Source: Candidatus Bathyarchaeota archaeon
Lineage (GTDB): Archaea > Thermoproteota > Bathyarchaeia > Bathyarchaeales > Bathycorpusculaceae
DNA: 64,000 bases
Reading direction: 5' to 3'
NCBI GenBank assembly: GCA_963782525.1
Contig: CAWAKC010000007.1
Location: forward strand, 128,001 to 192,000
How positions within the stretch are numbered: the first letter of the stretch is position 1; the number at the start of each line of letters is the position of its first letter. Under the pieces are notes generated by a model, which saw nothing but the letters and a program-made list of their open reading frames with translations, did no database searches and was not told where the DNA came from. Positions 91-34,062 of the stretch are shown in pieces. Made by a program: the position numbers and the translations under genes.

Positions 91-2796
91 TTATGGGCGT
101 TTTCGGAGCATAAGAAGGTTTACTATTCCAACCGCTATGATAGCAATGATTATTCCTATTGTGGCAGGTATAAAGTATGTGTCAGCGACAGATTCTGGTT
201 GTGGTGCCGGAGTTGGGGTTACGGTAGATTGTTCGTTGCCTACGTTAATGTAAGTTGTTGCGTATGATGGTCCGTATGCTTTGGATCCTGCGAATGACGC
301 TATGATTTGGTAGGTTCCTGGAACTTCTGGGTTGTAAGGGATCGCATAAGTGCCTGTTGTGTCGCTGGTTGTTGTGCCGATTGGGATTGTGTTGCCGTTG
401 GGATCGATGGCGGTTAAGGTTACTTTAACGCCAGTTGCGTTTGATGGCATTGCCTGCTGCATGAATTTGAATTCCATCCAAGCGGACATGCTTGCGTCGG
501 AGATTGCTGGAGTGCCTTTAAGCGAGAAGTCCATAACGCCGTTGGTGTTGCGTCTACCCGAAGAAGATTGGTCAGTAACGGTGCCCGTTAGCATTACAGT
601 GTTTCCGAAGGCTGCTGCTTCTGGTGATGCTGCAACTGTTGTTGCGCTTGGGCCTCTGCCGAAAGCGTAGATTTCGCCGTCGAAGTAGTTGAGACCAACT
701 AGGATTCCGTCAGCCATGTAGATGTTTGATTCAGTGGGGGACATTCTTGCGCCCCAGAACAGAATACTCCATATGTCTTCTCCGGTGGTAGCGTTGATGC
801 AGCGTAGGTTAGGACCACGGTAGAGTGGTTGGGTGGGTGAGTGTTCGCTTCCAACGGTGTATATTTTTCCATCTGCAACTATGTTTATACCTATGGGATA
901 GTTGCCGCCATAGGGAGATTCATCACCAATGCTGGTTGCTGCGTATTGCCAAAGCATGTTGCCTGTTTCTAAGTCGTAAGCGTAGATGACACCGCCGTAG
1001 CCGAAGGTGTAGAAGATGCCGTTGTACATGTTTGAACCGGAACCGTAGTAGACGAATTGTGTCTGTGGAGGAGTTGTCCAGATTAGTTGTCCAGTTGAGA
1101 GGCTGTAGCCAAACCAATTAAGCGTGCTCTTGCAGTAGAAGACCATTCTGTCGTATTCGGGATATACGCCCATTAGGCTTACTGAAGCATTAGCTGCTGA
1201 GGAGGGTGGAGTAAAGGTTGTCTTCCAGAGTTGTGTTCCTTGTTGACCAGGTTGTAAGCTTAGCGCTATCATATATCCTTGCACGGTGCCTCGTTCGTCA
1301 ACAAATCCGGAGGTTCCGATGATGATGCTGTCATCTTGACGTACAGACACGATACTGGCAGTTTGGTTGTTAATTGCATTGCGTGGACCCCAAACACTGT
1401 CTAGCGGTAATGAAACATTCAAAGAGTAGCCGGTTGCTCCGTTGTGGACCATGTTATAGTTTAATGCTGGACCACCGCCGAAGCCGCCTCCTTGAGGTCG
1501 CCATTGCCAGTATAAGGTTCCTGAGGTGTCTGCGAGTTCTGTTGGAATTGCAGAGGAGTTCCATACTTGCAGATAATATTTTGGTGATGTGTTTGTTCCT
1601 GAGTTGTATAGGTTATATCGTAGTAAGCTTCCGTCTAACCCGTAAACCATTGTTCCTGCTGTGCTAACATTTGCAATGAACGCCACGTGGCTAAATGTGT
1701 AGCCATCGAGCATCTCGTAGACTGTGCCATTACCGCTACCCCATACTGTACCTACACCAGTGGTAACCGTTCTATAAAGATAAGGAATGCCTCCGTGTTG
1801 GTTAGGTGACTCGTAGTTGTATATTTGGCCGTATGTTGGAATGGTGTCGTTGCTGAAGTATAGTTGTTCGCCTGTGTAGAGATCAACTGCTTGCCATCCT
1901 CTTGGGGCATGTGCTGTGTCTTGATATTGGTAGATTAGTTTTCCTTGCAGAATTATTGGGTTACCAAAGTTGTACCCTTGGTAATGCGCTGTTTCATATC
2001 CCCAGTTTCCTTTGCCGCCGTCACTCTCGAACCTTGAATCCATTATGCCGCCAGCGTAGTAGGGTTTTGTCCAAAGAATGTGTGCACTTTCAGGTGCGGA
2101 ACCATATGCGAAGTTTTGGGTGTTGCTTGTTGTGCCGCCGCCGATTGCTCCAGTAGGACCTGGTGAACCTGGTGGATATGCTGCTGCAAAGGCACCAAAC
2201 CAGTTGCCGGTTAGGGTGTACCATTCTCTGTTTGCATCGTTGAGTGGTCTAGTCCAGTAATCAGTCGTAACTGGTGGTTCTGCCCAGTTTTGAACGGGTT
2301 CGTTTTGCACTGTTAGAGTGACTGGTTCACTCCAGTCTGATGTAAAGTATGCTTGGATGTCAGCGACTGTTGAATTTCTCCATTCTCCTGGATAGTAGAC
2401 TTGGAAGGTGTAGTTGCCTGCAACTTGCGGTACATAGGAGGCATATGTGGCGCCTACGGGGTCAGTGCGGGGCAATTCAATTTGCGTATCGTTGGATCCG
2501 TCCGGTTTGATTACATTGACAATCATGTGAGCTTCCCATGCTGCGCGTCCGTTTGGAGCTGGAACTTTGCCGACCGTTTCGCCGATGTCTGGCGGGATTG
2601 CTTGAGTCCATGCAACAACGAGGGCTGTCTGACCGACTCCGACAATGTTGGGTGAAACGCCAACGTAAACATATGATTGCGTTGAAGATACAGATGCGCT
2701 GGCTGTTGGTACGTTAGAAAGTATAGGAATAGCAATTGTTAGCATCAGAATTATAGTGGCTAAAGATACTACTTTTTTATTAAACGATATTTTCAT
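91..2796 (-). CDS. Secreted PQQ-like beta-propeller surface protein with C-terminal membrane anchor (paralog 1 of 5)
   Basis: 901-aa ORF; signal peptide (MKISFNKK + hydrophobic core + ASA); propeller motifs (AYDLETGNMLW, NATTGEDIW); family motifs DPVG, ESPNQHG, SEHS, WMEF; C-terminal ADTYFIP + TM + LRKRP; many N-x-S/T sequons. Confidence 0.85.
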   Translation of the reverse strand: MKISFNKKVVSLATIILMLTIAIPILSNVPTASASVSSTQSYVYVGVSPNIVGVGQTALVVAWTQAIPPDIGETVGKVPAPNGRAAWEAHMIVNVIKPDGSNDTQIELPRTDPVGATYASYVPQVAGNYTFQVYYPGEWRNSTVADIQAYFTSDWSEPVTLTVQNEPVQNWAEPPVTTDYWTRPLNDANREWYTLTGNWFGAFAAAYPPGSPGPTGAIGGGTTSNTQNFAYGSAPESAHILWTKPYYAGGIMDSRFESDGGKGNWGYETAHYQGYNFGNPIILQGKLIYQYQDTAHAPRGWQAVDLYTGEQLYFSNDTIPTYGQIYNYESPNQHGGIPYLYRTVTTGVGTVWGSGNGTVYEMLDGYTFSHVAFIANVSTAGTMVYGLDGSLLRYNLYNSGTNTSPKYYLQVWNSSAIPTELADTSGTLYWQWRPQGGGFGGGPALNYNMVHNGATGYSLNVSLPLDSVWGPRNAINNQTASIVSVRQDDSIIIGTSGFVDERGTVQGYMIALSLQPGQQGTQLWKTTFTPPSSAANASVSLMGVYPEYDRMVFYCKSTLNWFGYSLSTGQLIWTTPPQTQFVYYGSGSNMYNGIFYTFGYGGVIYAYDLETGNMLWQYAATSIGDESPYGGNYPIGINIVADGKIYTVGSEHSPTQPLYRGPNLRCINATTGEDIWSILFWGARMSPTESNIYMADGILVGLNYFDGEIYAFGRGPSATTVAASPEAAAFGNTVMLTGTVTDQSSSGRRNTNGVMDFSLKGTPAISDASMSAWMEFKFMQQAMPSNATGVKVTLTAIDPNGNTIPIGTTTSDTTGTYAIPYNPEVPGTYQIIASFAGSKAYGPSYATTYINVGNEQSTVTPTPAPQPESVADTYFIPATIGIIIAIIAVGIVNLLMLRKRP

Positions 2797-2824
2797 TTTG
2801 TTTCTTTCCTTTTGTTTTTGATTT

Positions 2825-2878
2825 TAGAAAGCACTTGCTTCCTAGAGTCCCAGGTTATTTTCTCAAGAAATATATTAA
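2825..2878 (-). promoter_or_regulatory. TATA box (TTAATATA, 2871-2878) and 5'-UTR stem-loop (2825-2844) of paralog 1
   Basis: Minus strand reads UAGGAAGC-AAGU-GCUUUCUA (8 bp with one G-U), starting 34 nt after the first T of the TATA; AGGAAAG SD-like sequence before the ATG. Confidence 0.55.
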
Positions 2879-3076: not shown

Positions 3077-5632
3077 CTAATGTCTTTTGCTTCTTCTCCA
3101 AAAAACATAGCCCATAGCTGCGATTGCAACGACAAGTATGCTTGCGCCACCAATAAGTACTGCAATGTTAGGAGCCAGCGCCAAGGAGCTTGCTGCGGTG
3201 GAAGCTGGAGATGTGGCTTGACTTGTGACGTTTTCTCTGAACGCATAGAGGTTCCAGTCATTACATCCGATGTATAGCATCTTGTTTGCTATGGCTGGTG
3301 AAGACCAGCTGCTTGAAGGCATATCCATAGTTTCAAGTTTTTCACCATTGTTAGCAGCGTCCAAAACGAATATGTGACGTTGGCTAGTTACGTCGTAGAC
3401 TTTGCCGTCTGCATAGGTTGGCGCAACATACAATTCATCGCCCGTGTAGAAGCTCCATACAACTTTTCCCGTGTTGGCGTCGAGGCATGCTATGTTAAAT
3501 TTGTCGATGAGGATAACGTGTCCGTTCACGTATATCGGGGCATTGTAGATGAATTCGCCAGCGTCTTTGTTGGTGAAATTCCACAAAACCTCGCCTGTTG
3601 CCGCACTAACAGCATAATAAGTGATAACGTTGGATGACGTAAATACCATGCCATCTGCCACTGATGTTGAACCTAACAGTTCCGTTCCACCGATAAAAAC
3701 AGGGACATAGGGAATTGGTCGAGTCCAAATTACAGCTCCGTTGGCAGCGTCAAGTTTGTAGAGCATACCAGTGGTCGGTTCGTGGGAAGTGAAGAATATA
3801 GCACCGTCTGAGACTGAAGGGGAATTTTCAATCGGGCCAAGAGTTGCTGTTTTCCAAACAACATTGCCGTTGTTCGCATCAAGAGCATACATGTTGCCAT
3901 CCATTGACCCAATGTAAACAATGCCATTTGACACTGCGGGTGAAGATTTCATAACTATAGTGGAAAATGTGTTTGGCATGTTGCCGTTGACAGGCGTTGT
4001 CCATATGAGGTTGCCGCTGAAAGCATCTAGACAGTAAACGTTGCCGTCATCGCCTCCAGTGTAAACCTTACCGTTCACAACCGCAACTGAAGATTCAACT
4101 GCAGCGTTGGTGGCAAAGCTCCAGATGAGATTGCCGTTATATGCGCCAACCGCATAGATGTTTTTGTCTTGAGAACCAAAATAGACGATTCCATCCACGA
4201 TTGTTGGTGAGGATAGAACTGAACCGTTTGTCGCGAATTTCCACGCTAAAGTAAGATTAGCTGGACCTTGAGGGGCACTTGATGAGTGTGTTGGGTCTGC
4301 TCCCCACATTGACCAGTTGCTAACTGGAGTCGAAGGTGTGCCCATGGCCCAAAGCTGATTAGCGGTAGAGTATTCGTTTCCTGAGATTGTATCTACGGCA
4401 GTCGTTACTTCACCTGGAATAAGATACAAAGTTCCGTACGCAACGATCGCAGATTCTTTGGGTGCAAGGGCTTCCATCTTAAGCTTCCAAATTATTTGTC
4501 CAGTGTAAGCATCTAAACATGCAAACTGTGAAGCGCCCACTTCGTTGTTATAATAGGCATTTTGCCCAGTTGTCGCGTAAACCTTCCCGTCTGCAACCGT
4601 GGGGGCACCTGGAAACATCAGTGGACCTGGCCCCGTATAGTTCCATGCAAGTCGGCCAGTTTCTACGTTGACGGCATAGAGGTTACCATCCTTATTGAGC
4701 GCATAAACCATACCGTAACCAACCGCTGTGCCTACGCAGAAGTAACCGTCAGTGTTAGGCGTATAAGTCCAAAGGATGTCGCCGTTTGTAGCGTTAAAAC
4801 AGTACAGTGTATTGTCGTCTGTACCTCCCCTAAGATACATTCCTTCATAGTAGGAACCGCTAAAAATCATCGGCCCCTTCGTAAGAGTATCCCAAACAAC
4901 CTTGCCAGTTCTTGCATCTAGCGCCATCTGATGATTCTCAAAAGACCCTGGAAACACCAATCCGCCGCCGTACGTAACCCCCGAACCCGTAGTGCCGCCG
5001 CCGGGAACATATGTTTGCCAAGCCAAAGTTGGAGGCGCTGAGGGATCAGAGAAATCCCAAGCGTTGATGTATGAACCGACTTTTGTGTAGAACATTTTTT
5101 CTTCGGAACTATACACGTTGGCGACGAATAGAACGCCTGTGTCAGCTGAGAATTGTGTGCTGGTCCAAATGATGTTGCCTGTTTGCGGGTCAAGGCATGT
5201 GCCTTCAACAACCATGTGTGTATTGTCAATCTTGTAGGCTACGGGCCATGTTCCATTCATGGGAATGTCTTTGTGCCAGACAACTTGTCCAGATTGGTCA
5301 ACTGCACTAACGCCTGTGGTTGTGCAAACAAAAATTTTCCCGTCGAAAGCCACAAGGTAGGGTTCTATTCCTGTTATGTTGGTTTTCCACAGTACATTTG
5401 ATGTTGCTGGGGCTGGTCCTGCTGAAGACCGCGAGAAGGATGAATCGCCTTGGAATTGGGGCCACTCATACTGGTTTAGATTGCTAGAAGTAGAAGCGGA
5501 ATTAGTGTTGACTTGAGCATTTACAGTGGTGGGTCCTGCCTGAATGTAAAGCGAAGCAAAGATTGACGTAATAAGCAACAGAAGTAAGAACGACGCAACT
5601 TTGAGATTTTTAATAATTTGGCAGTCCCCCAA
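3077..5632 (-). CDS. Tandem PQQ/BamB-type beta-propeller protein, secreted and membrane-anchored
   Basis: 851 aa; two propeller units, each opening with a W-x-(Q/M)-(F/W)-x-(G/A)-D motif (WPQFQGD, WSMWGAD); many SSP-x-V-x-x-G-x-V-Y and A-L-D-A-x-x-G-x-x-x-W repeats; C-terminal TM + RRSKRH. Confidence 0.85.
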   Translation of the reverse strand: MGDCQIIKNLKVASFLLLLLITSIFASLYIQAGPTTVNAQVNTNSASTSSNLNQYEWPQFQGDSSFSRSSAGPAPATSNVLWKTNITGIEPYLVAFDGKIFVCTTTGVSAVDQSGQVVWHKDIPMNGTWPVAYKIDNTHMVVEGTCLDPQTGNIIWTSTQFSADTGVLFVANVYSSEEKMFYTKVGSYINAWDFSDPSAPPTLAWQTYVPGGGTTGSGVTYGGGLVFPGSFENHQMALDARTGKVVWDTLTKGPMIFSGSYYEGMYLRGGTDDNTLYCFNATNGDILWTYTPNTDGYFCVGTAVGYGMVYALNKDGNLYAVNVETGRLAWNYTGPGPLMFPGAPTVADGKVYATTGQNAYYNNEVGASQFACLDAYTGQIIWKLKMEALAPKESAIVAYGTLYLIPGEVTTAVDTISGNEYSTANQLWAMGTPSTPVSNWSMWGADPTHSSSAPQGPANLTLAWKFATNGSVLSSPTIVDGIVYFGSQDKNIYAVGAYNGNLIWSFATNAAVESSVAVVNGKVYTGGDDGNVYCLDAFSGNLIWTTPVNGNMPNTFSTIVMKSSPAVSNGIVYIGSMDGNMYALDANNGNVVWKTATLGPIENSPSVSDGAIFFTSHEPTTGMLYKLDAANGAVIWTRPIPYVPVFIGGTELLGSTSVADGMVFTSSNVITYYAVSAATGEVLWNFTNKDAGEFIYNAPIYVNGHVILIDKFNIACLDANTGKVVWSFYTGDELYVAPTYADGKVYDVTSQRHIFVLDAANNGEKLETMDMPSSSWSSPAIANKMLYIGCNDWNLYAFRENVTSQATSPASTAASSLALAPNIAVLIGGASILVVAIAAMGYVFWRRSKRH

Positions 5633-5895: not shown

Positions 5896-7929
5896 ATGAA
5901 AAAAATGTGGCGAATAATACTCGTTACTTTTCTAGTTTTCGCCATTTCAACATCCATTTTTGCTTCTGAAGGCACCGCTAAAGCGGTAACCAGCGATAAA
6001 GTGTACGTTGGTGTAACTTTCGGCGGCACTACCGTCGATGAAGCGAAACAGTTGATTGACAAAGTTTACACATACACGAATCTATTCATTGTGGACTCCT
6101 GGACCATCAGCGGCAACTTCAATGATACTACACCCTTAACTGAAATTTGTGATTACGCAGTACAGCACAACTTAGCTATCATAGTTTATTTCAGCTTCAT
6201 CTATTACAACTACACCCGAACCGTAGGTAACCTCTACAACGCCTCAGTTTGGGACCTTTATGGAGTCTTACCTTGGCATGTTGATTGGCTAAACCAAGCT
6301 AAAGCAAGGTGGGGCGACATGTTCTTGGGCGCTTACCTCTATGATGAGCCAGGAGGAAAACAAATAGACACGGGATACTGGGGAGGAAGCACCATGACGA
6401 CGTTCACCGGATCAAAAATCACTACATTTGTCAATACAACCGATTATGCTGACGCGGCCAGCCGGTTTACAAGAAGTTTAAACGGTGGAAGCATGCAGCA
6501 TATCATCAACACCACAATTCCCAACTCTGTAACGAGTCCAGTGCCTGTATTCACAGCTGATTATGCTCTTTACTGGTTTGATTACAAAGCAGGATACAAC
6601 ACTGTCTTTGTGGAATTGGGGAACAACCTACCAACGAACAGCAAAATCCAACAGATCGCCCTTTGCAGAGGTGCAGCTACAGCGCAACAAAAGGATTGGG
6701 GAGCCATAGTCACTTTAGGTACAGATGTGCCAAATCCAACTCCTGAAAATGGAACAACCGTCCTTAGTGATATGACTATGGCTTATGAGGCTGGTGCCAA
6801 GTACATTTTGGTGTTTAACTATGAACTCAACGGTCAAGGTATCCTAACAGATGAACAATTTAACGCTATGAAACAGTTCTGGGACAACATTCACTCATCT
6901 TCCGCAGATTCATGGGATAAATCCCCCGGACAAGTTGCCTTGGTGCTTCCCAATGACTATGGCTGGGGTATGCGACGCTTAAATGATAGGATGTGGGGGA
7001 TATGGGATGCACCTGATAATGCTACCCAAATCTGGAATAACATCGGCAACCTAACCGAAAGATACGGATTAAACCTGGACATCGTTTATGACGACCCTTC
7101 TGTGAACATCTCGGGGCTGTATTCTCAAACGTACCTTTGGAACAGCACCCTTAACTTTGCATCAACACCAACTTTATCCAACGAAATCTACATTTTGATT
7201 TCTGTAGTGGGTTCGGTTGGAGCAGTTGCTTGTGTATCCACTTATTTGGTTACAAAACGCAGAAAGCCAAAACTACCAACTCAGTTGGCGCAGCAATTCA
7301 GCCCAAGCAAAGAAGTGCTTTTAGAATCACCAATAACAACCCCAAAGAAAGTTGAAGTTAACCCCGAATTAAACGACATTTTCAACGCTTACGCCAACAT
7401 CATAGATCCATTGCATGATTTGCTCATGGACCTCCATGGACATACAAGCTGGATGGACCTAGAAAACGACTTAACCCGATGCAAACTTGCAAAAGCGTTG
7501 GAAGGAAAAATTTCCTTAGAAAACCTGAACTTTAGAAAGCTCTCTATTCTAATAAAGAATAAGAAGGCAAAAGAAGCCGCAAACGAAATTGAAGCTTTAA
7601 TTGAAACATTACATAGAGAAGTATCAACCCTAAAGGGAAAAGACGTCTCAGAGGAAACCCAAATAGAGTATAGTTCGTTAAAATCGGTAATTCTAGCCTA
7701 TTTTACTCTGAACGATGTTTTACTGGGTCAAGCCCTTGGCGATGAAGAACTTGAGAAAGAAAAGAGCGAGCTTGCCAAAGTTTTAGATGGCTTTTCTGAA
7801 AAGAAAGGAAGTGGATTGTTTGTCGAATTCACAGATAGGCTTAAGCTTCAAAAAACTGGGAAGCTTTCAGTTGAAAAAAGCCGATTGTTAATCAGAAAAC
7901 AACTCAATGAGTTCCTCAGACAGAATTAA
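5896..7929 (+). CDS. Single-pass membrane protein: extracellular glycoside-hydrolase-like domain, TM helix and cytoplasmic helical domain
   Basis: 677 aa; signal peptide; YLYDEPGG motif; TM at about aa 430-453 followed by KRRKPK; charged helical C-terminal region of about 220 aa. Confidence 0.7.
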   Translation: MKKMWRIILVTFLVFAISTSIFASEGTAKAVTSDKVYVGVTFGGTTVDEAKQLIDKVYTYTNLFIVDSWTISGNFNDTTPLTEICDYAVQHNLAIIVYFSFIYYNYTRTVGNLYNASVWDLYGVLPWHVDWLNQAKARWGDMFLGAYLYDEPGGKQIDTGYWGGSTMTTFTGSKITTFVNTTDYADAASRFTRSLNGGSMQHIINTTIPNSVTSPVPVFTADYALYWFDYKAGYNTVFVELGNNLPTNSKIQQIALCRGAATAQQKDWGAIVTLGTDVPNPTPENGTTVLSDMTMAYEAGAKYILVFNYELNGQGILTDEQFNAMKQFWDNIHSSSADSWDKSPGQVALVLPNDYGWGMRRLNDRMWGIWDAPDNATQIWNNIGNLTERYGLNLDIVYDDPSVNISGLYSQTYLWNSTLNFASTPTLSNEIYILISVVGSVGAVACVSTYLVTKRRKPKLPTQLAQQFSPSKEVLLESPITTPKKVEVNPELNDIFNAYANIIDPLHDLLMDLHGHTSWMDLENDLTRCKLAKALEGKISLENLNFRKLSILIKNKKAKEAANEIEALIETLHREVSTLKGKDVSEETQIEYSSLKSVILAYFTLNDVLLGQALGDEELEKEKSELAKVLDGFSEKKGSGLFVEFTDRLKLQKTGKLSVEKSRLLIRKQLNEFLRQN

Positions 7930-13781: not shown

Positions 13782-13919
13782 AAACAAAAAAAGAAAAAGG
13801 GTTGTTGTTTTAGTTTTGATGGTTGTGGCTTATTTCTTTCTGAGCATCAATAGAGCCAAAACAATGGCCACTATGATGATGAGAACGAACAAACCTGCAA
13901 TCGCTGGAACAAAGTATTG
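13782..13919. repeat. 138-bp direct repeat, copy 1 (anchor-coding 3' end plus terminator of paralog 2)
   Basis: Matches 18172..18309 with 2 mismatches. Confidence 0.9.
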
Positions 13920-21036: not shown

Positions 21037-21075
21037 ATTTTTTCTTTCCTTTAAATTTTTTCTTTCCTTTTTTCT

Positions 21076-21141
21076 GAGCAAGAAGCTATTAAGGGATAGC
21101 CCCTACTCGGAGGTAGCTCCTATTCTCGGAATGCTTATAAA
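21076..21141 (-). promoter_or_regulatory. TATA box (TTTATAAG) and 5'-UTR stem-loop of paralog 3
   Basis: GAGUAGGGGCUAU-CCCUUA-AUAGCUUCUUGCUC (13 bp with G-U pairs and 1 bulge), starting 33 nt after the first T of the TATA. Confidence 0.6.
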
Positions 21142-24111: not shown

Positions 24112-24138
24112 TTTTCTTTCCTCTTTTTTTGTTTTTGC

Positions 24139-24209
24139 GTTTGACAAAGATAGTGTTATTATGTATCCTGTCAAACCGTTAAGTAGGGTGCTTCGTTTAA
24201 TTTAAATAA
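24139..24209 (-). promoter_or_regulatory. TATA box (TTATTTAA) and 5'-UTR stem-loop of paralog 4
   Basis: GUUUGACAGGAUA-N11-UAUCUUUGUCAAAC (13 bp, 1 bulge), starting 33 nt after the first T of the TATA. Confidence 0.6.
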
Positions 24210-24303: not shown

Positions 24304-26946
24304 TTAGGGTTTCTTTCTTAGAGCTAAGACTATTACGACTGCTGCGATTGCGATTGCTACGATTATTGCGACAGATACTGGGATTAGATATGTGTCAGCT
24401 ACAGATTGTGCTTGCACTATTGCTGTAGGTGCTGGTGTGGTTGGTTCTGAACCTATAGTTAGGTAGGTTGTTCCAAACGATGAGCCATAAGAGTTAGAGC
24501 CTTCGAAGGTAGCGATTATTTGGTATGTGCCTGGAACGTCTGGTTTGAAGGCTATGCCGTAGTTGCCTGCAGCGTCGCTTGTAGTGTCCCCGATGTGGAC
24601 GAGGTTGCCGTTGGGGTCGATTGTATCTAATCTAACTGGAACGCCTGTTGCGTTTGTGGGCATTGGTCTTTGATGGTACATATATTCCATCCAAGCATCC
24701 ATCGAAGCATCTGAGATTGCTGGAGTGCCTTTTAGTGCACGGTCTATGTCGCCGTTGATGTTTCTGCGTCCATACTGAGATTGGTCTGTCACTGTACCAG
24801 TAAGTTCAACAGTTGAGCCTAGAGGTGGAACTATTTGTGGTGCGGAAACTGTGGTAGCACTTGGGCCTTGACCAAAGCAGTAGATCATCTCGTCGTGGCT
24901 ATCTACCACTAAGAGTCGTCCGTCTGCTATGATTGGGGCTGAACTTGGCCAGTCAGTTAACATCCAAATCATCTTACCGTCGGTAACGTTTACGTCCCAA
25001 ATCTGTGCGTCACGTCGGATGGGGTTGTTGTTTGAGTGCTCGCTTGAGTAGAGGTATAGCTGTCCGTCGCCTGTAAGGAAGCCAAATGATGTTGGTGTGT
25101 ATTGGTATGGTGTTTCGTCTACGCCTACTGGTGGAGCGGTCCAGTTCCAAAGTGAGGTGCCTGTCTTTGCATCGAATGCTCTGACTACTCCTGCGTATCC
25201 ACCGCAATCGATGAATTCTCCCTTGTAACAGACTGCTGTTGCTCCGCCATAGAATTGGAATTGCTCTGCTGGTGGCGCTTTCCACGCTAAACTTCCGTCT
25301 GCGAGGTTGTAGATGAAGTAGGTTCTTGTCATTGCGTCATAGTACCAGAAAATGCCTTCCTGTATGCAAACGCTGCTGAAAGCTGTGTTTTTATTGCTGA
25401 ATTGCTCGGCTTGACCATATGCGTCGCCTACGTTTGCTGGAGCCGTGAAGTTGTAGTTGTAGAGCACTTGTCCTACGAACCCTGGCTTCAAGTTAAGTCC
25501 AACTACGCTGCCTGGAATACTGAGGGAGCCGTTGTTAGAGCCTGCGTAGATTATGACCATTTGGTCGTCTGGGATAACTTGGCGAACATTGATAGTGCTG
25601 AGAGATAGGGAGGGTATGCTTACGTTTGCTGAGTAGCCGTTTCTACCATCATACGTGTAGTTTAAATTGGGTCGCCACATCCAGTTTGAGTTGGTACCCG
25701 AAGTATCTTCGTGTGCAACGTATGATGCATACATGATTACTTGCGAAGTGTTCCAAACTTGGAGATACCATTGAGGTGCTGCGTTTGCCGGAGCCAAATT
25801 GACCAAGTTGTACCTTAGAATGCTGCCGTCTGGTCCGACTGCCGATGTTCCAGTGCCTCCTCTTACCGTACTGCGTCCGCCTATTGTATCAGTTGTTGTA
25901 ACGTTCGCTATGCTACATATATAATTGCCAGAGAAGTCATCGTACATTTCCCAAGTATTCGTCTTGCCAATTGGACTGGTTACCCAGTAGTAGCCTATGG
26001 TTCCGTGCTGGTTAGGATTGTCCTCTACTAGGACTTGCCCGAATGCTGGTGCACCAGAAGGTATGCTGCCTGTGCTTGAGAAGGATCCACCTGCGCCCGA
26101 AACTGCACTCGATGTATTGTTTCTGTAGTAGATTGTTTCTCCACTGTAAAGATCGCAACAGTACCAGCCCTCCTTCGGGTTAGTTCCTACAGCGTAGTAG
26201 AATTGGCCGTTAAGAATAATTGATGGACCGCCGTAGCTTTCGTATGATTGGCCACTGTAGTACGAGTTGTCGGGGCTTGAAGAATTAACAGTTGAGTAGC
26301 CGCCTGCGATTCCGCCGTTGAAGAAGGGTCTTGTCCACAGAACGTGTGAGCTTGATGGACCTTCAGTGTAGGGGTTGTATCTGCTGCTGCCGAACGTTGA
26401 AAGTTCATTTGCTGCTAAGTATTGACCCATTACGACTGGACCCCAGCCTCTGTTCGTGTCGTATACTGGTCGACTCCAGTAGTCTGTTGGAAGCGGAGTT
26501 TCTGTATATCTCGCCATTTGTTCCGTCGTCACTGTCAAAGTTTGTGTTTCGCTTAAGGCAGATTCAAAGACAACGCCGATTGGAGTCCATCCTTTGGGTA
26601 CATTGTTAGGATTAGGTGGTGAACCTGAAGGCCACCAACCAGCACCCTGAGGAGCAACTAAGCCTCTGCTTGCGCCGCCGTCGATAATACATTGTCGCAT
26701 AATAGCTTGAACGACGTATGTGCCAGTCTCTGTTGGAACATAGTTTGTATAGCCAGCGCCTACTGGGTCAGATACTACGCCTTTAATAGTATCGTTGGTT
26801 CCATCTGGTCTGATGATGTTGACGTCGAATGTGAAGCGGTCGCCGTATTCGCCTAGAGCTGTTGGCGGAAGTTTATCGCAGAAGAAACAAAAAAGACTGG
26901 TTTGACCAAGACCTATGGTGTTGGGAGCAATGGATAGGTACACCAT
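24304..26946 (-). CDS. PQQ-like beta-propeller surface protein (paralog 5); signal peptide disrupted, original start at 27017 is out of frame
   Basis: 880-aa ORF closest to paralog 3; DNPNQHG, SEHS, WMEY, ADTYLIP + TM + LRKKP; the upstream in-frame sequence FTQPANAAYARFYKD is a signal-peptide c-region. Confidence 0.8.
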   Translation of the reverse strand: MVYLSIAPNTIGLGQTSLFCFFCDKLPPTALGEYGDRFTFDVNIIRPDGTNDTIKGVVSDPVGAGYTNYVPTETGTYVVQAIMRQCIIDGGASRGLVAPQGAGWWPSGSPPNPNNVPKGWTPIGVVFESALSETQTLTVTTEQMARYTETPLPTDYWSRPVYDTNRGWGPVVMGQYLAANELSTFGSSRYNPYTEGPSSSHVLWTRPFFNGGIAGGYSTVNSSSPDNSYYSGQSYESYGGPSIILNGQFYYAVGTNPKEGWYCCDLYSGETIYYRNNTSSAVSGAGGSFSSTGSIPSGAPAFGQVLVEDNPNQHGTIGYYWVTSPIGKTNTWEMYDDFSGNYICSIANVTTTDTIGGRSTVRGGTGTSAVGPDGSILRYNLVNLAPANAAPQWYLQVWNTSQVIMYASYVAHEDTSGTNSNWMWRPNLNYTYDGRNGYSANVSIPSLSLSTINVRQVIPDDQMVIIYAGSNNGSLSIPGSVVGLNLKPGFVGQVLYNYNFTAPANVGDAYGQAEQFSNKNTAFSSVCIQEGIFWYYDAMTRTYFIYNLADGSLAWKAPPAEQFQFYGGATAVCYKGEFIDCGGYAGVVRAFDAKTGTSLWNWTAPPVGVDETPYQYTPTSFGFLTGDGQLYLYSSEHSNNNPIRRDAQIWDVNVTDGKMIWMLTDWPSSAPIIADGRLLVVDSHDEMIYCFGQGPSATTVSAPQIVPPLGSTVELTGTVTDQSQYGRRNINGDIDRALKGTPAISDASMDAWMEYMYHQRPMPTNATGVPVRLDTIDPNGNLVHIGDTTSDAAGNYGIAFKPDVPGTYQIIATFEGSNSYGSSFGTTYLTIGSEPTTPAPTAIVQAQSVADTYLIPVSVAIIVAIAIAAVVIVLALRKKP

Positions 26947-27397: not shown

Positions 27398-28702
27398 ATG
27401 ACAAAAGCATCAGCCCAACAGAAAAGCAGATCAGACGTTTATGAATCACGGGAAAATTGGCCTCCATACACTTACCGGGATTACCCAAACATCAAACCTG
27501 AAACCTACAAGGCCTTCCAAGAATTTCTGAACACCGAGAATACTTCAGGAAGACTCATGGAGTTGCAGCCGTGGATATCTGTTTGCGACTCAAAATGTGC
27601 TTTTTGTTACTTCCCAACTTCGCCAACAAACAAAGTGGAGATAGAAAAATATCTTTTCTTGCTCAAAAAAGAACTTGAAATGTATGCAAAAACCAAGTAT
27701 GTAAAGACAAGTTGGTTTGACGAGATAGTTCTGGGCGGTGGAACTCCCAGCGTTTTAACTGCCGAGCAGATGATCGACCTGATCGATTTTTGCAAGGAAC
27801 GATTCAACATAAACAAAGAATATTTCATCAAAGTAACCGGGTCCTCAAAGACTCTGGCGCTACCAAAAATCGACCAACTCGCCGCCTACGGCGTCTACCA
27901 AATGGACATGGGCGCCCAAACCTTCGACGACAAAATCCGAAAGATGCTCTGTTTACCCGACGGCGCTGCAGACGTCGAAAAAGCAATTCGCCATGCTCGG
28001 AAACTGGGTCTATGTGTCTGTGTGGATCTAATGTATAATCTTCCGGGGCAAACGATGGAGAGCTGGATAAACACACTCAAAAAAGCCATCGAGTTAGACG
28101 TGGAAATCGACGCATATTCACTACACGTTGACCCTGGCACGATGCTGGAAAAAATGATTAAAACAGGGAAATCTCCGCCTGTTGGAGACGGCGAATACGA
28201 GAAGCAAATGTACCTAACAGCCTACAACATGTTGACACAAGCAGGCTACAGCGCAGTCGGTCACGACCGCTACAGCCGCAATGAATGGCACATGAGAGAA
28301 AACTGCCTTAACGGTTGGCCATGGGGAGGCATACTCACCACCGGCGCAGGCTGCTTTATGGGTTATCTGCAGCGGTTCAGCTACAGCAACATCGAAAGCA
28401 TCGATGAATACATGAAGACAGTCAAATCGGGGAAACTGCCTATCCAAAGACTTTCAGAGTCCTCGGACGACGAAATGATGCGTCGAGAGATGAGTAGGCT
28501 GTATTTGCGTTTGCCCGTAAGCAAGAAAGAGTTTATGGAGAAATTCGGCAAACTACCAGAAGATGTATTTCCCAAGCAACTCAAAAGCCTCAAGGAGAAG
28601 GGGCTAATCGAGATAGATGACAAGGAAGTTAGAATTACCAAGCAGGGCGAAGTCTGGAAGGGCAACATTGCTTGGGAATTTGCAGCAAAACAGCCTTGTT
28701 AA
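27398..28702 (+). CDS. HemN-like (coproporphyrinogen III oxidase / class C methyltransferase family) radical SAM protein
   Basis: CDSKCAFCYF, LGGGTPS, DLMYNLPGQT, HemN C-terminal L-KEKGLIE...ITKQG; GGAGAG SD-like sequence. Confidence 0.85.
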   Translation: MTKASAQQKSRSDVYESRENWPPYTYRDYPNIKPETYKAFQEFLNTENTSGRLMELQPWISVCDSKCAFCYFPTSPTNKVEIEKYLFLLKKELEMYAKTKYVKTSWFDEIVLGGGTPSVLTAEQMIDLIDFCKERFNINKEYFIKVTGSSKTLALPKIDQLAAYGVYQMDMGAQTFDDKIRKMLCLPDGAADVEKAIRHARKLGLCVCVDLMYNLPGQTMESWINTLKKAIELDVEIDAYSLHVDPGTMLEKMIKTGKSPPVGDGEYEKQMYLTAYNMLTQAGYSAVGHDRYSRNEWHMRENCLNGWPWGGILTTGAGCFMGYLQRFSYSNIESIDEYMKTVKSGKLPIQRLSESSDDEMMRREMSRLYLRLPVSKKEFMEKFGKLPEDVFPKQLKSLKEKGLIEIDDKEVRITKQGEVWKGNIAWEFAAKQPC

Positions 28703-28812: not shown

Positions 28813-29478
28813 TTAGTGCCTTACGGGCTGAAGCCCATACCAAGTCATTACTTTAGCAATGATGGGTGCAATTATGCCGAGAATAATCATCGGAAGCATT
28901 GCAAGGAACAGTGCGTTTGGTGGGTCTGATTGTGACATGAATGCAGCGTAAGCAATAGTCATGTTGAAGACGAAGGTCAATACTCCCACAGTTAATGCGG
29001 CAGTTAGACCGGCACCGAGCATACGTTTAAAGTTCATTGAGCCATTGTTTAAGCCGCCTGCGATGTAGCCGATTAGTATTCCGCCAATTATGTAGTTTCC
29101 AATGAAGCTTGGGTCAGCAAAGAGGTTGGGAGATGAGCCAAAATTAACGACAGAGTATTGAATGTTGTAGCCTGCTTCGCCAAGGTACAAAAGAGTGCCT
29201 AACATGAAGCCTGCAGCGCCACCAGCCCATTTATTCCAGATTAAGCCTAAAATTAATGGAACAGCGAACATTACCATCAATGCAAAGCCATGAGTGAAAA
29301 TTGGTGTCAGGAACGAATATGGCGAGCCTGCTGCGCCTGTAGCCATGTTTGGACCTGGGAAGTAGTGGTCAAGTCCTGGGCGAATTACTGCTGGAAAAGC
29401 AACGATAAGAAGACCGACGAGTATTGGTATGACTAAGCCGTAAAGAATGTCTGCTAGTTTAAATTTTTCTGTTTCCAA
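28813..29478 (-). CDS. Uncharacterised integral membrane protein (about 6 TM, Gly-rich, faintly ECF S-component-like)
   Basis: 221 aa, hydrophobic; WAGGAAGFMLG; TTG start with AAGGGA upstream. Confidence 0.75.
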   Translation of the reverse strand: METEKFKLADILYGLVIPILVGLLIVAFPAVIRPGLDHYFPGPNMATGAAGSPYSFLTPIFTHGFALMVMFAVPLILGLIWNKWAGGAAGFMLGTLLYLGEAGYNIQYSVVNFGSSPNLFADPSFIGNYIIGGILIGYIAGGLNNGSMNFKRMLGAGLTAALTVGVLTFVFNMTIAYAAFMSQSDPPNALFLAMLPMIILGIIAPIIAKVMTWYGLQPVRH

Positions 29479-29679: not shown

Positions 29680-30978
29680 TCAGTGGCGTGATGCACAGAT
29701 TATGCCGCTTAGGGGTAGTTTCGATGGGCAGACGTATGAGCAGGTTCCACATGCAATGCAGTCTTTAACCCATAGTTTCTCAGCTTTTGCAAAGTCACCT
29801 TTCATGATTGCATTGTAGATCATTATCGGGTGCAGACGTACTGGACATGATTGGATGCAGTTAGAGCAGTGGATACATGCGGTTGTTGGTTGATCTGGCT
29901 TGTATTTGCTTTTGGAGAAGACGATAATGCTTGATGTCCTCTTAGTTACTGGAGCTTCGATTGTTGGAAGAGCGTTTCCCATCATGACTCCCCCGATTAC
30001 TACTTGTCGGATGTCGCTTGTATCAACTTTGTTTTGAGTTAGGATTTCGCTGATAGGGGTGCCTATTTTGACTTGCAGATTCTTTGGTTCTGCGATGTCT
30101 CCGTTGAGGGTTGTGACTCTGGAGATCAGGGGTTCACCTTCGAAGACTGCGTTTGCTATGGCGTTTATGGTTGCGACATTCTGGACTATGGTGCCCATTT
30201 CGTATGAGCGTTTGCCTGATGGAGTTTCGTATTTGAGGATTGCTTTTTGTAGTACGCTTGCATCGCCTTGTTGATATGTTAGGTGTTTTGCGATGACTTC
30301 TGTATCGGGTTCTTTGCCGAAAGCTGCTTGTAGTTTTGGTACCGCTTCGACTTTGCTGATTTTGGTTGCGACGATAACTTTGGGGTTTCCCAAAAGTTTG
30401 CGTATAACTCTAACTCCCCGCACTAAGTTTTCGGTTCTCTCTATCATTAAGCGTTCGTCTGCTGTGTCGTAGGGTTCGCCTTCTGCAGCGTTTACAATAA
30501 GGGTTTTTATTGGTTTATCTGCGGGAACAGCAAGTTTTATGCTGGTTGGGAATCCTGCACCACCTAAACCGATAATGCCTGCGTCTCGGATTCGTTTGAG
30601 GAGGACGTCGTTGGCTGTATTTTTGAGTTCAGATTCAGAGATAGGAGTTAGGGTTTTGTCTTTGGTTTTTTTGCTGTCGTTTTCGATCCAGATGGCTTCA
30701 GAGCATTCTGAGTAGCAGCTATTGTATATGTCGCCGATTTTTACGACCTTGCCAGAGATTGGGCTATGGACGGGTGCGCTTACCCGTTCTTTAGAGTCAG
30801 CTATTTTTTGTCCCATGGCTACGATGTCGCCAACAGAGACCAAGGGCTTGTTTACTGCCCCGGTGTGTTGGTAAGTTAAGACTATGGCGGTTTTTGGGTC
30901 AGGGAAAATTTCGATGGGTTTAGTTCTAGCTATGTCTTTGTGTTCTTTAATTTCAACGAGATTTGCCATTATATTCAT
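29680..30978 (-). CDS. rnfC: Rnf electron transport complex subunit C homolog
   Basis: QHTGA...VGD..MGQ, SAPVHSPISGKV, GLGGAGFPT, EPY-TAD-RLM; two [4Fe-4S] motifs CIHCSNCIQSCP and CIACGTCSYVCP. Confidence 0.85.
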   Translation of the reverse strand: MNIMANLVEIKEHKDIARTKPIEIFPDPKTAIVLTYQHTGAVNKPLVSVGDIVAMGQKIADSKERVSAPVHSPISGKVVKIGDIYNSCYSECSEAIWIENDSKKTKDKTLTPISESELKNTANDVLLKRIRDAGIIGLGGAGFPTSIKLAVPADKPIKTLIVNAAEGEPYDTADERLMIERTENLVRGVRVIRKLLGNPKVIVATKISKVEAVPKLQAAFGKEPDTEVIAKHLTYQQGDASVLQKAILKYETPSGKRSYEMGTIVQNVATINAIANAVFEGEPLISRVTTLNGDIAEPKNLQVKIGTPISEILTQNKVDTSDIRQVVIGGVMMGNALPTIEAPVTKRTSSIIVFSKSKYKPDQPTTACIHCSNCIQSCPVRLHPIMIYNAIMKGDFAKAEKLWVKDCIACGTCSYVCPSKLPLSGIICASRH

Positions 30979-32156
30979 CTCCCAAAGGGTTTGTGGATAC
31001 CTACACGATCAAGGAGTGGTACCGTCAAGTTCATGATTAGCAATGCTAGCAGAGAGCCGCCAAAGAAGTTCATATAGGTTTGTATAACTACGGTCAAGAT
31101 GCCTAAACCGACGCCGAAGATGATTTGTCCTGCGCCTGTGAAAGGAGTTGTCGCGGGGTCCGTTGCCATGAAGAAACCCAAAAAGATTGAGCTGCCGATG
31201 AAAACTTCGAAGAGCAACCTTGTTATAAGATCTGAGTCTGCGTAAGCCATTGACATTACAATAGACATCACAGCGATTGAAGCGAAATATGCGAGGGTAA
31301 CTCTCCATTTCATGTATTTGCGTGCGAGGACGAATAACGCGATGCCGACAATGATGACTAAGATGCTTGATGCACCACCGGGCCAACCGTGGAATTTCTC
31401 AAGAATCATAAGCGAGTTTAAGTCTGGAAGAGCAGTAATAGAGGGGTTAGCATAGCATGACTGAAGGTAGCTGCTGAAAGATGCTACGCCGTTGGTTCCA
31501 ATTGCTGCGGTTCCTCCGCCTATTGGACCTGCTAGTAGAGGTATGCCGATGCCGCCTACAGAGGTTGAAGCAAAGTGTTCTTTAGGTAACAGAAGGGTGG
31601 CAACGAAGGGAAGCAGCAGGAGGAATTTTGCGGCTGCAGCGGGGTTAACGATTTTTCGTCCAGCTACGCCTCCAACTACTTTTTTGAAGAGAACTTGGCC
31701 GACTAGCGATATAATTGCAATGAAAACAAAAGCGTTAGGTGCTGTTAAGGTGGCAACAGGCATGACGTCTCCAGTACCCATAGCCATAGCAGGGACACCA
31801 AGTGAAAATGAAAGCGTGACGATTAAGCCGAAAACAGCTGAGGACCAATAGTTCTTTTCGCTGTCTGAGACGATTTTGTGGAACAAAGCATCTATTCCTA
31901 AGGCTACTCCGATAGCAATGAGGGCGTTGATAAGCAGTTCAACGCCAAGCGACATTTGCCAGACGCCCTTGAGCGAGCTGTAAGTGGTTAATTGTGCGTT
32001 TGTGGGGGTGGTAACAGGAAACCAGAGAATGGCGGTTACGACAGTGATTACCAAAAGAGCTACAAAAGTGTATTGCATCAGACGGGTTTTGGACATTGCA
32101 CCAGTTATGTGTGGAGCAGATTTGACAACTAGTTCATTAGTAGATTCATTACTCAT
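30975..32156 (-). CDS. rnfD: Rnf/Nqr subunit D homolog
   Basis: SAPHI N-terminus, K-V-GG..G-KIVNPAAA, FFMATDPATTP, LLIMNLTVPLLDR...PFG; ATGA overlap with rnfC. Confidence 0.82.
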   Translation of the reverse strand: MSNESTNELVVKSAPHITGAMSKTRLMQYTFVALLVITVVTAILWFPVTTPTNAQLTTYSSLKGVWQMSLGVELLINALIAIGVALGIDALFHKIVSDSEKNYWSSAVFGLIVTLSFSLGVPAMAMGTGDVMPVATLTAPNAFVFIAIISLVGQVLFKKVVGGVAGRKIVNPAAAAKFLLLLPFVATLLLPKEHFASTSVGGIGIPLLAGPIGGGTAAIGTNGVASFSSYLQSCYANPSITALPDLNSLMILEKFHGWPGGASSILVIIVGIALFVLARKYMKWRVTLAYFASIAVMSIVMSMAYADSDLITRLLFEVFIGSSIFLGFFMATDPATTPFTGAGQIIFGVGLGILTVVIQTYMNFFGGSLLALLIMNLTVPLLDRVGIHKPFGR

Positions 32157-32379: not shown

Positions 32380-32832
32380 GTGACTGACGCCGAAAACCAA
32401 GAACTTCAAGGAATAACATTAAAGGTCTACTTGTATGCCGTCAAAAAAGGCAAGCCCGTTGGACCAAGAGATGTAATGAAGGGAACCAACCTCACTAGCC
32501 CCAGTGTCGCTTATCGGCACCTGCAGAAACTTGAAGACTTAGGCTATCTGCAGAAAAATGAGTTTGGAGAATACAAAGTTGACAAAAAAGGTCAGATTAG
32601 GGGTTATGTTTGGTTTGGTCGACGTTTATTGCCGAAAATGTGGCTTTATTCTCTGATTTTCACTGTTATTTTGGCTGTGGAAATCTTTGTGTTGATTTTA
32701 CATTTTAGAGTAGAAACCTACGAATTCAAAGTTTTCTTCCTTCTTTTGATGCTTGTAACTGGGTTGGCGCTTGCTGTTTTCACCTTGGAAGGCTTTTTGC
32801 AGAACAGACGTAAAATCACCGCAAAAGAATAA
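32380..32832 (+). CDS. Winged-helix DNA-binding protein with two C-terminal TM helices
   Basis: PVGPRDVMKGTNLTSPSVAYRHLQKLEDLGYLQKNEFGEY HTH/wing; two hydrophobic segments. Confidence 0.75.
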   Translation: MTDAENQELQGITLKVYLYAVKKGKPVGPRDVMKGTNLTSPSVAYRHLQKLEDLGYLQKNEFGEYKVDKKGQIRGYVWFGRRLLPKMWLYSLIFTVILAVEIFVLILHFRVETYEFKVFFLLLMLVTGLALAVFTLEGFLQNRRKITAKE

Positions 32833-32937
32833 TTATTTTGATTCATAATTTTGCTGTGTCTGCAGTTTTTGTGAAAAAGCGAAAAACGAGTTTTTAAGGG
32901 GAAGTTTTATATCGCTTTACCAAATCTATTCTCCCCT

Positions 32938-34062
32938 GTGAATTCAATGAGTTCAATGAATCCAATCACAGCCCCCCTGTTTATGGTTGTTTGGCGGTGT
33001 ACCCGCAACTGTGTGGGCACTTGCACATACTGTAGTTACATCAAAGATTACGCTAAAGATCAAGAGCTGAACACTGCACAAGCTAAACATATGGTTGATG
33101 AAATGGCAGAGTTCGGTTCACAATGGTTTGGAATCAGCGGCGGAGAACCCTTGGTTCGACCTGACATTTGGGAAATTATCGAGTACGCAGAGAAGCAACA
33201 CGGCATGAAAGTCAGCTTGATTACAAGCGGCTTTGCATGGGATGAAGAACGCTTCAACAAACTAACAAAGTATGAAGTTCACACAGCCATCAGCATCGAC
33301 GGGAACAGAGAAACAAACGATATGATTCGCCGAAAAGGCGGCTACGACAAAGCCATCCACGCCATGGAAAAACTTAGCAGCGTTGGCTTACTCGACTGCT
33401 TAGTTACAACCATGACTAAGCACAACATTAAACAGATGGCTCATCCAGCGATGTTGGCGGAAAAATACAAAGCCCGAATGATGGTTTACCATAACCTTGT
33501 ACCAGTAGGTAGAGCAGGTGAAAACATGGAGGAGTTAGCCCCGACAGCCGACCAGTACGAGGAAGCATTCAACGAAATCTACGACATCCAAAGAAAACTC
33601 TACGGCACAGTCAAAGTCAACGTTTACGCACCATTCTATGCTCGCATCGTACGCCAAAAGAATCCAACAGACTTCTGGCAATGGTACAACGAAGGGTACC
33701 TTGGAAAATGCACCATCGGCGGCAACTACATCGGCATCACCGAAAATGGCGACTACCGAAGCTGCGGATTCCACGAAGGCTACCGAGTTGGCAACGTCAA
33801 AGACAAAAAATTAAGCACCGCATGGGCAGAACTACAGAAGAGCGAACTACACCTTAAACTACGCGACAAAAGCAACCTCAAAGGCAGATGCGGAGTCTGC
33901 GAATACCGAGAAATCTGCGGCGGATGCAGAACACGAGCAGAATACTACACTGGCGACCTCTTCGAATCAGACCCAGCATGCAACTACATACCCAAAGTAC
34001 TACGCGAAGACCCTAAAGCCCTCGAAGCACTACGCAAAAACCCAATGGGAAAAGTACAATAA
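32938..34062 (+). CDS. Radical SAM/SPASM protein, AhbC/AhbD/NirJ-like (paralog of 17003..18079)
   Basis: CTRNCVGTCTYC, SGGEPL, SIDG, LVPVGRA, GRCGVCEYREICGGCRTRA...DPAC. Confidence 0.88.
   Translation: MNSMSSMNPITAPLFMVVWRCTRNCVGTCTYCSYIKDYAKDQELNTAQAKHMVDEMAEFGSQWFGISGGEPLVRPDIWEIIEYAEKQHGMKVSLITSGFAWDEERFNKLTKYEVHTAISIDGNRETNDMIRRKGGYDKAIHAMEKLSSVGLLDCLVTTMTKHNIKQMAHPAMLAEKYKARMMVYHNLVPVGRAGENMEELAPTADQYEEAFNEIYDIQRKLYGTVKVNVYAPFYARIVRQKNPTDFWQWYNEGYLGKCTIGGNYIGITENGDYRSCGFHEGYRVGNVKDKKLSTAWAELQKSELHLKLRDKSNLKGRCGVCEYREICGGCRTRAEYYTGDLFESDPACNYIPKVLREDPKALEALRKNPMGKVQ

Follow-up and report, generated by a model that had tools for sequence, protein, structure and literature searches.

The window analysed here is a stretch of 64,000 nucleotides from a Candidatus Bathyarchaeota archaeon (G000:C7:128001-192000; the genome, G000, has 2.87 Mb on 12 contigs and is 95.8% complete). 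Its positions 91..34062 carry genes for surface beta-propellers of a family named here after its PNQHG loop, for radical SAM enzymes and for the Rnf subunits RnfC and RnfD. Comparison across Bathyarchaeia showed that radical SAM enzymes, reduced Rnf and propellers constitute one co-inherited module, in which arms for supply, lipids, tailoring, membrane redox, binding and the surface can be told apart. That these genes belong to one system had been proposed in an earlier note on this DNA (the original prediction), and the genome comparison bore this out. The locus consists of known families in an undescribed combination; it is larger than proposed and conserved. Our favoured explanation, held with a confidence somewhat short of even, is that the module builds an undescribed membrane-bound redox cofactor, probably linked to a prenyl or ether lipid, which carries electrons between a cytoplasmic donor and the surface propellers.

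The distribution was profiled in one draw of 201 Bathyarchaeia genomes. Matches were obtained in 26 genomes with the RnfD-like protein (E limit 1e-15), in 29 with the PNQHG propeller (1e-30), in 28 with the SPASM enzyme (1e-80), in 29 with the HemN-like enzyme (1e-60), in 26 with domain 1 of a double propeller (1e-50) and in 27 with a second digeranylgeranylglyceryl phosphate (DGGGP) synthase (1e-45). These six markers were confined to the same 28 genomes, i.e. five genera of family f1 and genus g28 of family f7, with two exceptions: the fragmented G137 (550 contigs) had propellers only and G063 had a 33% HemN match. Three of the six markers were missing in G158 and one each in G146 and G006. 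All six were absent from eight f1 genomes (seven genera) and four f7 genomes, and 6/6 genomes of g28 had them all. Kinship was gauged in 5 genomes with one single-copy gene, which we take to be proteasome alpha; thermosome was confounded by paralogues and not used. Identity to G000 was 78-83% in three negative f1 genomes, 71% in the positive G106 and 70% in a negative f7 genome. These three module-negative f1 genomes are closer to G000 than the one module-positive genome compared, G106. The latter, a member of the other family, carries the whole module as one block of ~70 kb, from btu to the second tetraether synthase (Tes) and the second DGGGP synthase. Among 18 genomes of the genus, propellers were present in 18, the SPASM family in 18, the HemN-like enzyme in 17 and RnfC in 10; 12 genomes of other families gave no match to any of these.

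The radical SAM genes cluster at this locus beyond chance. The 34 kb contain 6 of the genome's 48 such genes vs 0.57 expected (genome-wide scan, P = 0.011), and 12 vs 1.4 expected lie in C7:96-177 kb (0 of 5000 simulations). Among the 13 strong genome matches for B12-binding radical SAMs, 7 fall in C7:116-177 kb. The 34 kb form the middle of an island of ~90 kb; upstream this reaches ~35 kb beyond the window, downstream 22 kb beyond 91..34062. It also holds the second Tes and DGGGP synthase, glycosyltransferases, B12 salvage genes and MtgA/C. Upstream are located CobY, CobS, an epimerase, the DGGGP-synthase-like UbiA enzyme, Tes (above the cut-off of NF045702), a third SPASM enzyme with DUF362 and glycosyltransferases (GT2 and GT4), furthermore CobD, an Fe-S aldo-keto reductase, a methyltransferase, two Dph6-like ATPases, CbiB, an amidohydrolase, three further B12 radical SAMs and a sixth propeller. 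The island Tes and UbiA enzymes each have one distant second copy elsewhere in the genome (38% and 30% identity). In relatives, the double propeller was present in 18/22 mapped islands and directly beside a SPASM gene in 15/22; a PNQHG gene was part of the island in 14/22 and adjoined the methyltransferase in 6/22, with both families represented.

The membrane-redox arm comprises an RnfD-like membrane protein (30975..32156, minus strand) and RnfC (29680..30978, minus strand). RnfC scored 409 bits vs a cut-off of 246 in TIGR01945. The RnfD-like protein stayed below its curated cut-off and is homologous to RnfD (E 1.5e-20 to 8ahx_D). RnfA/RnfE, RnfG and ApbE (PF02508, PF04205, PF02424) were not found in the 95.8% complete genome, controls being positive; RnfB was not searched. 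In RnfD, covalent flavin mononucleotide (FMN) is carried by Thr in the motif [ST]GA[ST]. In an alignment of 59 RnfD-like rows, each of at least 330 aa, this motif was absent at the aligned site (0/59) and occurred in 1/59 elsewhere in the chain, and the residue aligned to the flavinylated position was S/T in 45/59 only. TGAT of A. vinelandii RnfD aligns with a variable segment, and Cys234 is located a few residues after it. His194, Cys234, His256, Trp258, Asn171 and Asp333 were kept in 59/59 rows. Asn171 and Asp333 presumably are on the riboflavin side. In canonical RnfD, FMN is bound to Thr towards the outside, and riboflavin, placed towards the cytoplasm, has a bridge to the two clusters of RnfC (PMC12174285; papers are cited by accession, and statements about them refer to the sections available to us).

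The input to the RnfD-like protein is exchangeable. In 58 RnfD-like loci (8 kb flanks, many incomplete at the edges, labels from the best BLAST match) RnfC was present in 36 and a fused RnfD-Fe-S form in 22. Three arrangements occupy one gene position: RnfD with RnfC, RnfD fused to an RnfC-type dicluster domain, and that fusion extended by FrhB domains, which bind F420 (L099:573-2885 and G013:C10:23783-25939). The FrhB fusion suggests F420 as an electron partner. G000 has both input types because, besides RnfCD, it carries, within G000:C11:18909-24071, an RnfD-Fe-S fusion paralogue; a PNQHG-family propeller lies 1.2 kb away, and two helix-turn-helix-type ORFs that overlap each other separate the two. 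NapH-like Fer4_5 membrane genes were encountered in 3/58 loci (L113:3455-4588, L116:10882-11961 and L119:4777-5817); in L116 the NapH-like gene is accompanied by three double propellers. Judged by sequence, RnfCD is not an Rnf complex here. Because RnfA/E, RnfG and ApbE were not found, the flavinylation motif is absent and RnfC is replaceable, an ion pump is not expected. Electron transfer to NAD(H) through RnfCD had been proposed. A one-way membrane electron link is indeed plausible; NAD(H), however, is not obligatory since fused Fe-S or F420-binding domains take the place of RnfC in relatives. One-way RnfD-based conduits have a precedent (PMC8238504).

Besides the RnfD-like gene, several others belong to the core. 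Radical SAM/SPASM 2 (32938..34062, plus strand) was found in 45/58 RnfD-like loci, mostly divergent from the RnfD-like gene, and the HemN-like, class C radical SAM (27398..28702, plus) in 38/58. Radical SAM/SPASM 1 (17003..18079, plus) is conserved with 79-100% identity in 17/18 genus genomes. B12-binding radical SAM a (7926..9398, minus), with a basic C-terminal tail (+12), has orthologues of at least 44% identity in 17/18 genus genomes and weaker relatives in 8/12 others; it was present in 22 of the 58 loci, a PNQHG propeller in 15 and the double propeller in 13. A protein of 221 aa, unmentioned in the original prediction, was counted as a core part as well (28813..29478, minus; 37/58 loci). 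PDB and Pfam searches with its sequence gave nothing significant. The six-helix fold of its model is that of an energy-coupling factor (ECF) S-component (Z 11.9, rmsd 2.6, 138 residues aligned; Atlas lead 0.85). The top six rows were all S-components (rmsd 2.6-5.0), at a Z of 11.9 that is below the caution level for helical bundles. Accordingly, it is listed as a predicted small-molecule binder. The genes at L067:16928-19381 (G000:C7:64.9-67.4 kb), which we take to resemble those for EcfT and two ATPases, are ~90 kb upstream of the S-component-like gene and are a possible energising module.

The profile, the synteny, the invariant residues of the RnfD-like protein, the swap of its input, the NapH-like neighbours and a quinoprotein fold match of the propellers were counted in favour of a membrane-bound redox cofactor. 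The following sequence of events would be compatible with the gene content. Btu, CbiZ, CbiB, CobD, CobS and CobY would salvage B12, and MetK would supply S-adenosylmethionine (SAM). A lipid scaffold might be provided by the second DGGGP synthase and the second Tes. The B12, SPASM and class C radical SAM enzymes, the methyltransferase, the reductase, the amidohydrolase and the glycosyltransferases would tailor the product at the membrane. Electrons could be donated by NADH via RnfC, by a ferredoxin-type domain, or by F420 via the FrhB fusion; they would travel over Fe-S clusters and the riboflavin site that the RnfD-like protein has kept, and would reach the cofactor in the place left by FMN; no ions would be pumped. 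The S-component-like protein may bind the cofactor or a precursor. The double propeller would be the founding outer partner, and the PNQHG family may represent expanded, substrate-diversified outer clients.

The surface arm in the 34 kb consists of five PNQHG propellers, a double PQQ-type (pyrroloquinoline quinone-type) propeller and a YVTN propeller. PNQHG propeller 1 (91..2796, minus) has a signal peptide, an immunoglobulin-like domain, a PQQ-type beta-propeller, a second immunoglobulin-like domain and a C-terminal transmembrane anchor (model pLDDT 82.7). PNQHG propellers 2 to 5 are encoded at 13830..16694, 18220..21081, 21364..24174 and 24304..26946, all on the minus strand. The signal peptide of propeller 5 is disrupted by a deletion and a frameshift just upstream of the gene; it is intact in G002. 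In the assembly, the number of PNQHG genes for an intact secreted protein is thus four instead of five. The YVTN propeller with its transmembrane anchor (10992..12111, minus), an accessory not seen at the matching place in G002, is split by a frameshift near 11270. All genes originally listed, i.e. these propellers, three B12-binding, two SPASM and one HemN-like radical SAM, rnfD/rnfC, a winged helix-turn-helix regulator with two transmembrane segments and, downstream, MetK, CbiZ and a fourth B12 radical SAM, were located where they had been placed, with the reservation that propeller 5 and the YVTN gene are broken in the assembly, where an error of assembly is possible. The double propeller (3077..5632, minus; transmembrane-anchored) is the island's most constant propeller. 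In the model of propeller 1 the PNQHG loop would be a hairpin joining the first two strands of a blade. This model has a PQQ-type beta-propeller fold, with a match to PF13360 and to quinoproteins at Z 12.0 (4mh1; rmsd 5.8, 308 aligned) and 11.3.

A profile built from 16 full-length PNQHG proteins and searched against the genome detected 34 loci on 7 contigs. In a quick tree of the family (48 rows without split and short genes, support by SH-aLRT only), the window's five copies were spread over four or more subclades. Those from the islands of G001, G003, G004, G011, G013 and G016 belong to another clade, the G000 member of which is on C1. Because the window copies span subclades and the island copies of relatives form another clade, the alternation of five propellers is a local expansion; G002 and G181 share it. 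Propeller and HemN-like searches gave only close relatives among the matches listed, with no donor outside Bathyarchaeia there. A regulator, from its sequence presumably of a tandem AsnC type, accompanies PNQHG propellers in and out of the island (G001:442162, G003:2344297, G011:459564, G181:144.7 kb, G000:C3:168437).

Does a common cofactor connect the propellers with the enzymes? A number of observations weigh against it. Only 8/34 PNQHG loci of the genome are within 10 kb of a radical SAM gene, and at the level of clusters there was no enrichment (4/19 vs 5.7 expected); co-location within the genome was therefore rejected as proof of a link. It had been stated that the idea would fall if both families were dispersed and co-occurred no more than copy numbers predict. 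Inside the genome this is half the case, across genomes it is not. The PNQHG slot of the island is occupied by different subclades among relatives, and in 8/22 mapped relatives no PNQHG gene was in the fetched DNA. According to the model, the propeller fold ties quinoproteins with the cofactor-free YxaL (Z 11.1, within ~1 of the best match), BamB (10.3) and tetrathionate hydrolase (10.4), all with rmsd 5-6. Invariant polar residues are few in both types of propeller. A His/Met-lined pocket had been envisaged; His239 and Met774 are indeed invariant in 32 full-length paralogues of the genome (Glu651 is kept in 28, His652 in 29), but the His of PNQHG itself is present in only 22/32, and the pocket was not supported. 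No conserved precursor peptide emerged among 168 small ORFs compared with the fetched loci; the best-conserved ones encode a Zn-ribbon-like protein, a membrane protein and a ferredoxin. As kin genomes are not independent, the profile perhaps corresponds to about two or three independent events; it was drawn up without a genome-wide control for the number of other genes sharing the 28-genome pattern, and a single acquisition of an island can bring in functions that have nothing to do with each other. Product, cofactor and activity are all predictions from the genes. Finally, seven B12 enzymes with basic tails would suit plain lipid tailoring equally well.

The simplest rival, possible though rather less than evenly likely, is such a structural lipid. 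Radical SAM enzymes, second Tes and DGGGP synthase and glycosyltransferases would produce an unusual structural lipid, an ether lipid or glycolipid that might be methylated, of butanetriol type or of another kind. The RnfD-like module would do no more than supply reducing power at the membrane, and the propellers would be cofactor-free, as their fold allows, and would have arrived with this type of envelope. Consistent with this, the second DGGGP synthase follows the profile of the module, the island Tes is above its cut-off among glycosyltransferase genes, and Grs, Gmm, Cgm, Pgm and Ted belong to the B12 radical SAMs and act on GDGTs (glycerol dialkyl glycerol tetraethers), lipids that such enzymes methylate, cyclise and desaturate; one is from a bathyarchaeon (bioRxiv 2025.10.20.683597). 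No enzyme is named for butanetriol dialkyl glycerol tetraethers in the literature searched. The C-terminal tails of the B12 enzymes are basic (net charge +1 to +12 vs a proteome mean of +1.2), as in the C-terminally membrane-bound Cgm of the same preprint, but tails of this kind are shared by paralogues outside the island. A weak counter-argument is size: the island enzymes have 459-490 aa vs filters of >495 and >=500 aa for Cgm and Ted homologues there. The NCBIfam lists for window proteins contained no model for a GDGT-tailoring enzyme (Grs, Gmm, Cgm, Pgm, Ted). A structural lipid gives no reason why His/Cys/His should be invariant at the outer FMN site, nor why an S-component-like protein, NapH-like neighbours and, next to the RnfD-like gene, SPASM and class C enzymes should be there. 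Lipid tailoring had originally been offered as an alternative to the redox system. Because the second DGGGP synthase shares the distribution of the module, this alternative is not a separate one. An improbable proposal is that the island is a cobamide hub, in which salvaged corrinoids are given a new lower ligand or an altered ring for use by the MtgABC O-demethylase system, and a base or corrinoid is taken up through the S-component-like protein. CobD, CbiB, CbiZ, CobS, CobY and Dph6-like genes flank the core, as do BtuFCD and CobT in several relatives, a Cys-less SPASM enzyme of the btu operon and a third paralogue fall into one group with SPASM 1 and 2 (96% SH-aLRT), and BzaCDE homologues are reported in Bathy-6 (PMC11697101). 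Yet the B12 enzymes reached 93-139 bits vs 450 required for BzaD, MtgB is reported in 60/172 metagenome-assembled genomes across the order and thus apparently wider spread than the module (PMC10989822, which describes MtgABC), and lipid enzymes, RnfD-like protein and propellers would have no role.

The narrow version of the original prediction, a heme d1-like tetrapyrrole or a PQQ-like peptide cofactor for the propellers, is quite improbable. The best-scoring families for the radical SAMs of the window are BchE, AhbD/NirJ and HutW, the top PDB match of SPASM 1 is PqqE, and a 'possible PQQ synthase' has been proposed in Bathy-6 (PMC11697101). None, however, passed a curated cut-off. The B12 enzymes scored at best 269/481 for BchE and 248/578 for HpnJ, the HemN-like enzyme 130/325 for HemN, 153/205 for HemW and 186/400 for ChuW/HutW, and the two SPASM enzymes 113 and 126 bits vs 381 for PqqE (TIGR02109), 219 and 199 vs 500 for Ahb (TIGR04545) and 149 and 153 vs 515 for NirJ (TIGR04051). 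HemB, AhbAB and PqqD (PF05402) were not found in the 95.8% complete genome; PqqB/C were not searched. AhbAB is present in only 7/18 genus genomes, with its own AhbC/D in each of the three loci read, and SPASM 1 and 2 form a clade apart from these AhbC/AhbD in a quick tree. On these grounds the heme d1, Ahb and PQQ routes were rejected. Complete ahbABCD operons were observed in three relatives (L063-L065). Longer fused forms of SPASM 2 were absent at E <= 1e-30, which is weak evidence. PQQ-dependent dehydrogenases have a conserved vicinal Cys pair; such a pair was present in just 1/32 PNQHG paralogues. The double propeller remained below the cut-off of TIGR03075 (120 bits vs 480), three PNQHG proteins scanned had no NCBIfam match, and no propeller contains CxxCH, the c-type heme motif. 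The sole CcmF-like gene, on C3, is unrelated, and a cytochrome c link was dismissed; the gene is located in an apparently mobile region of this anaerobic lineage (L066, G000:C3:68709-74398), and the genes after it resemble, as we assume, cbb3-type oxidase subunit I and a tri-heme cytochrome c. Least probable of all is that the propellers are hitch-hikers, i.e. a duplicating surface family linked to the radical SAM cluster by shared ancestry only. The 34 dispersed loci, the lack of enrichment, the four or more subclades in the window and the propellers alone in G137 would fit; matching presence and absence in two families and the adjacency of double propeller to SPASM gene and of PNQHG gene to methyltransferase do not.

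The remaining genes may be noted briefly. B12-binding radical SAMs b (9403..10800, minus) and c (12300..13742, plus; 46% identical to a) are in the 34 kb and d follows at 47613..48995 (plus). The regulator with two transmembrane segments (32380..32832, plus) occurred in 16/58 RnfD-like loci, MetK for SAM supply (36305..37660, plus) in 21/58, and an accessory membrane-anchored protein of 677 aa without family match (5896..7929, plus) in 7/58. At 43278..46472 two Cys-motif barrel proteins flank a 72-aa dicluster ferredoxin and CbiZ; the ferredoxin (44221-44439, plus) is immediately 5' of cbiZ and has matches in 10 fetched loci. An MtrH/MtgA-like methyltransferase and a corrinoid protein (49407..50763, minus) are followed by two paralogous large polytopic membrane proteins of 800 and 768 aa (50872..55595, plus). 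These were beside SPASM 2 in 14/58 loci; they have no Pfam match and appear GT-C-like by topology. A 68-aa Zn-ribbon-like protein (39893-40099, minus) has matches in 26 fetched loci. At 58479-59315 (minus), next to tRNA-Gly (58312-58385), a CAP12/Pycsar-type TIR domain protein is encoded, possibly a defence gene. A partial second copy of the module (L003-L004, G000:C7:227173-242080) has a HemN-like enzyme (85% identical), a 692-aa SPASM enzyme, a MetK-like gene and a double propeller nearly identical to that of the window (96% in domain 1).

If the cofactor explanation were correct in its broadest form, which we regard as rather unlikely, a whole lineage of abundant Bathyarchaeia would rely on extracellular redox chemistry not yet described. 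A new lipid-anchored cofactor would be built by about a dozen radical SAMs, a His/Cys/His RnfD would conduct from NADH, ferredoxin or F420, and tens of propellers would attack lignin-derived or humic substrates. In that case the His/Cys/His site would have taken the place of covalent FMN, and the neighbouring SPASM or class C enzyme may install it. That the cofactor system is categorically new is likewise doubtful. Bathyarchaeia of soil, gut and sediment gain or lose the module as one package, and its marker set separates lineages with and without the trait. The island provides a bounded gene list with candidates for unassigned archaeal lipid chemistry, and a flavinylation-independent RnfD with defined residues to examine.

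How does the module compare with known systems? With Rnf (RnfABCDEG) it shares RnfC and an RnfD homologue, and the wiring from the Fe-S clusters of RnfC to the riboflavin of RnfD is likely kept (PMC12174285). It differs in that RnfA/E, RnfG and ApbE were not found in the genome, the flavinylation motif is absent and RnfC can be replaced by fused Fe-S or FrhB domains. A partial Rnf is mentioned in passing for Bathyarchaeia (PMC9534799), and in Bathy-6, according to the available sections of PMC7886697, no full Rnf was detected. The NQR/RNF-like systems of Meheust et al. 2021 (PMC8238504) also have a lone RnfD/NqrB homologue with a cytoplasmic redox domain, for which unidirectional transfer is proposed. 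Those fuse NqrF (PF00175) and are in flavinylation clusters, whereas the island fusions are of Fe-S or FrhB type, ApbE and FMN-binding domains are absent and His/Cys/His stands in place of the motif. GrsA/B, Gmm, Cgm, Pgm and Ted, likened by family and description, are B12-binding radical SAMs like the island enzymes, and basic tails of a possible membrane type and a linkage to Tes and DGGGP synthase may be further common traits; the island enzymes are shorter and come as seven paralogues together with SPASM, class C and redox genes. The pqq, nir (heme d1), ahb and mft clusters have in common with the island a SPASM enzyme, tailoring enzymes and a client propeller or oxidoreductase, mft (mycofactocin) being a parallel to the SPASM-plus-client arrangement. 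They differ by PqqD, AhbAB, HemB and a precursor peptide, which were not found in G000. With the ECF S-components ThiT, RibU, PanT, FolT and BtuM the 221-aa protein shares the fold; unlike these it is without a sequence family match and is encoded behind rnfDC. The closest precedent is the expansion of PQQ-domain and radical SAM genes in Bathy-6 (PMC11697101), with up to 46 PQQ-domain genes and 7-20 B12 radical SAMs per genome, a PqqE-like gene, conserved genes near mtgA-mtgC and a proposed lignin redox function. Families and lineage are the same. Its main text, as available, does not join the families in one island or profile and does not mention Rnf, and PQQ binding is assumed. That the system is undescribed, as had been suggested, agrees with the literature searched, in which no paper describing the module as a unit was found; the gene neighbourhoods of Figs S4 and S10 of PMC11697101 may already depict a part. 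The expansions of propellers and radical SAMs are thus already published, and in the literature searched their union in one module is new.

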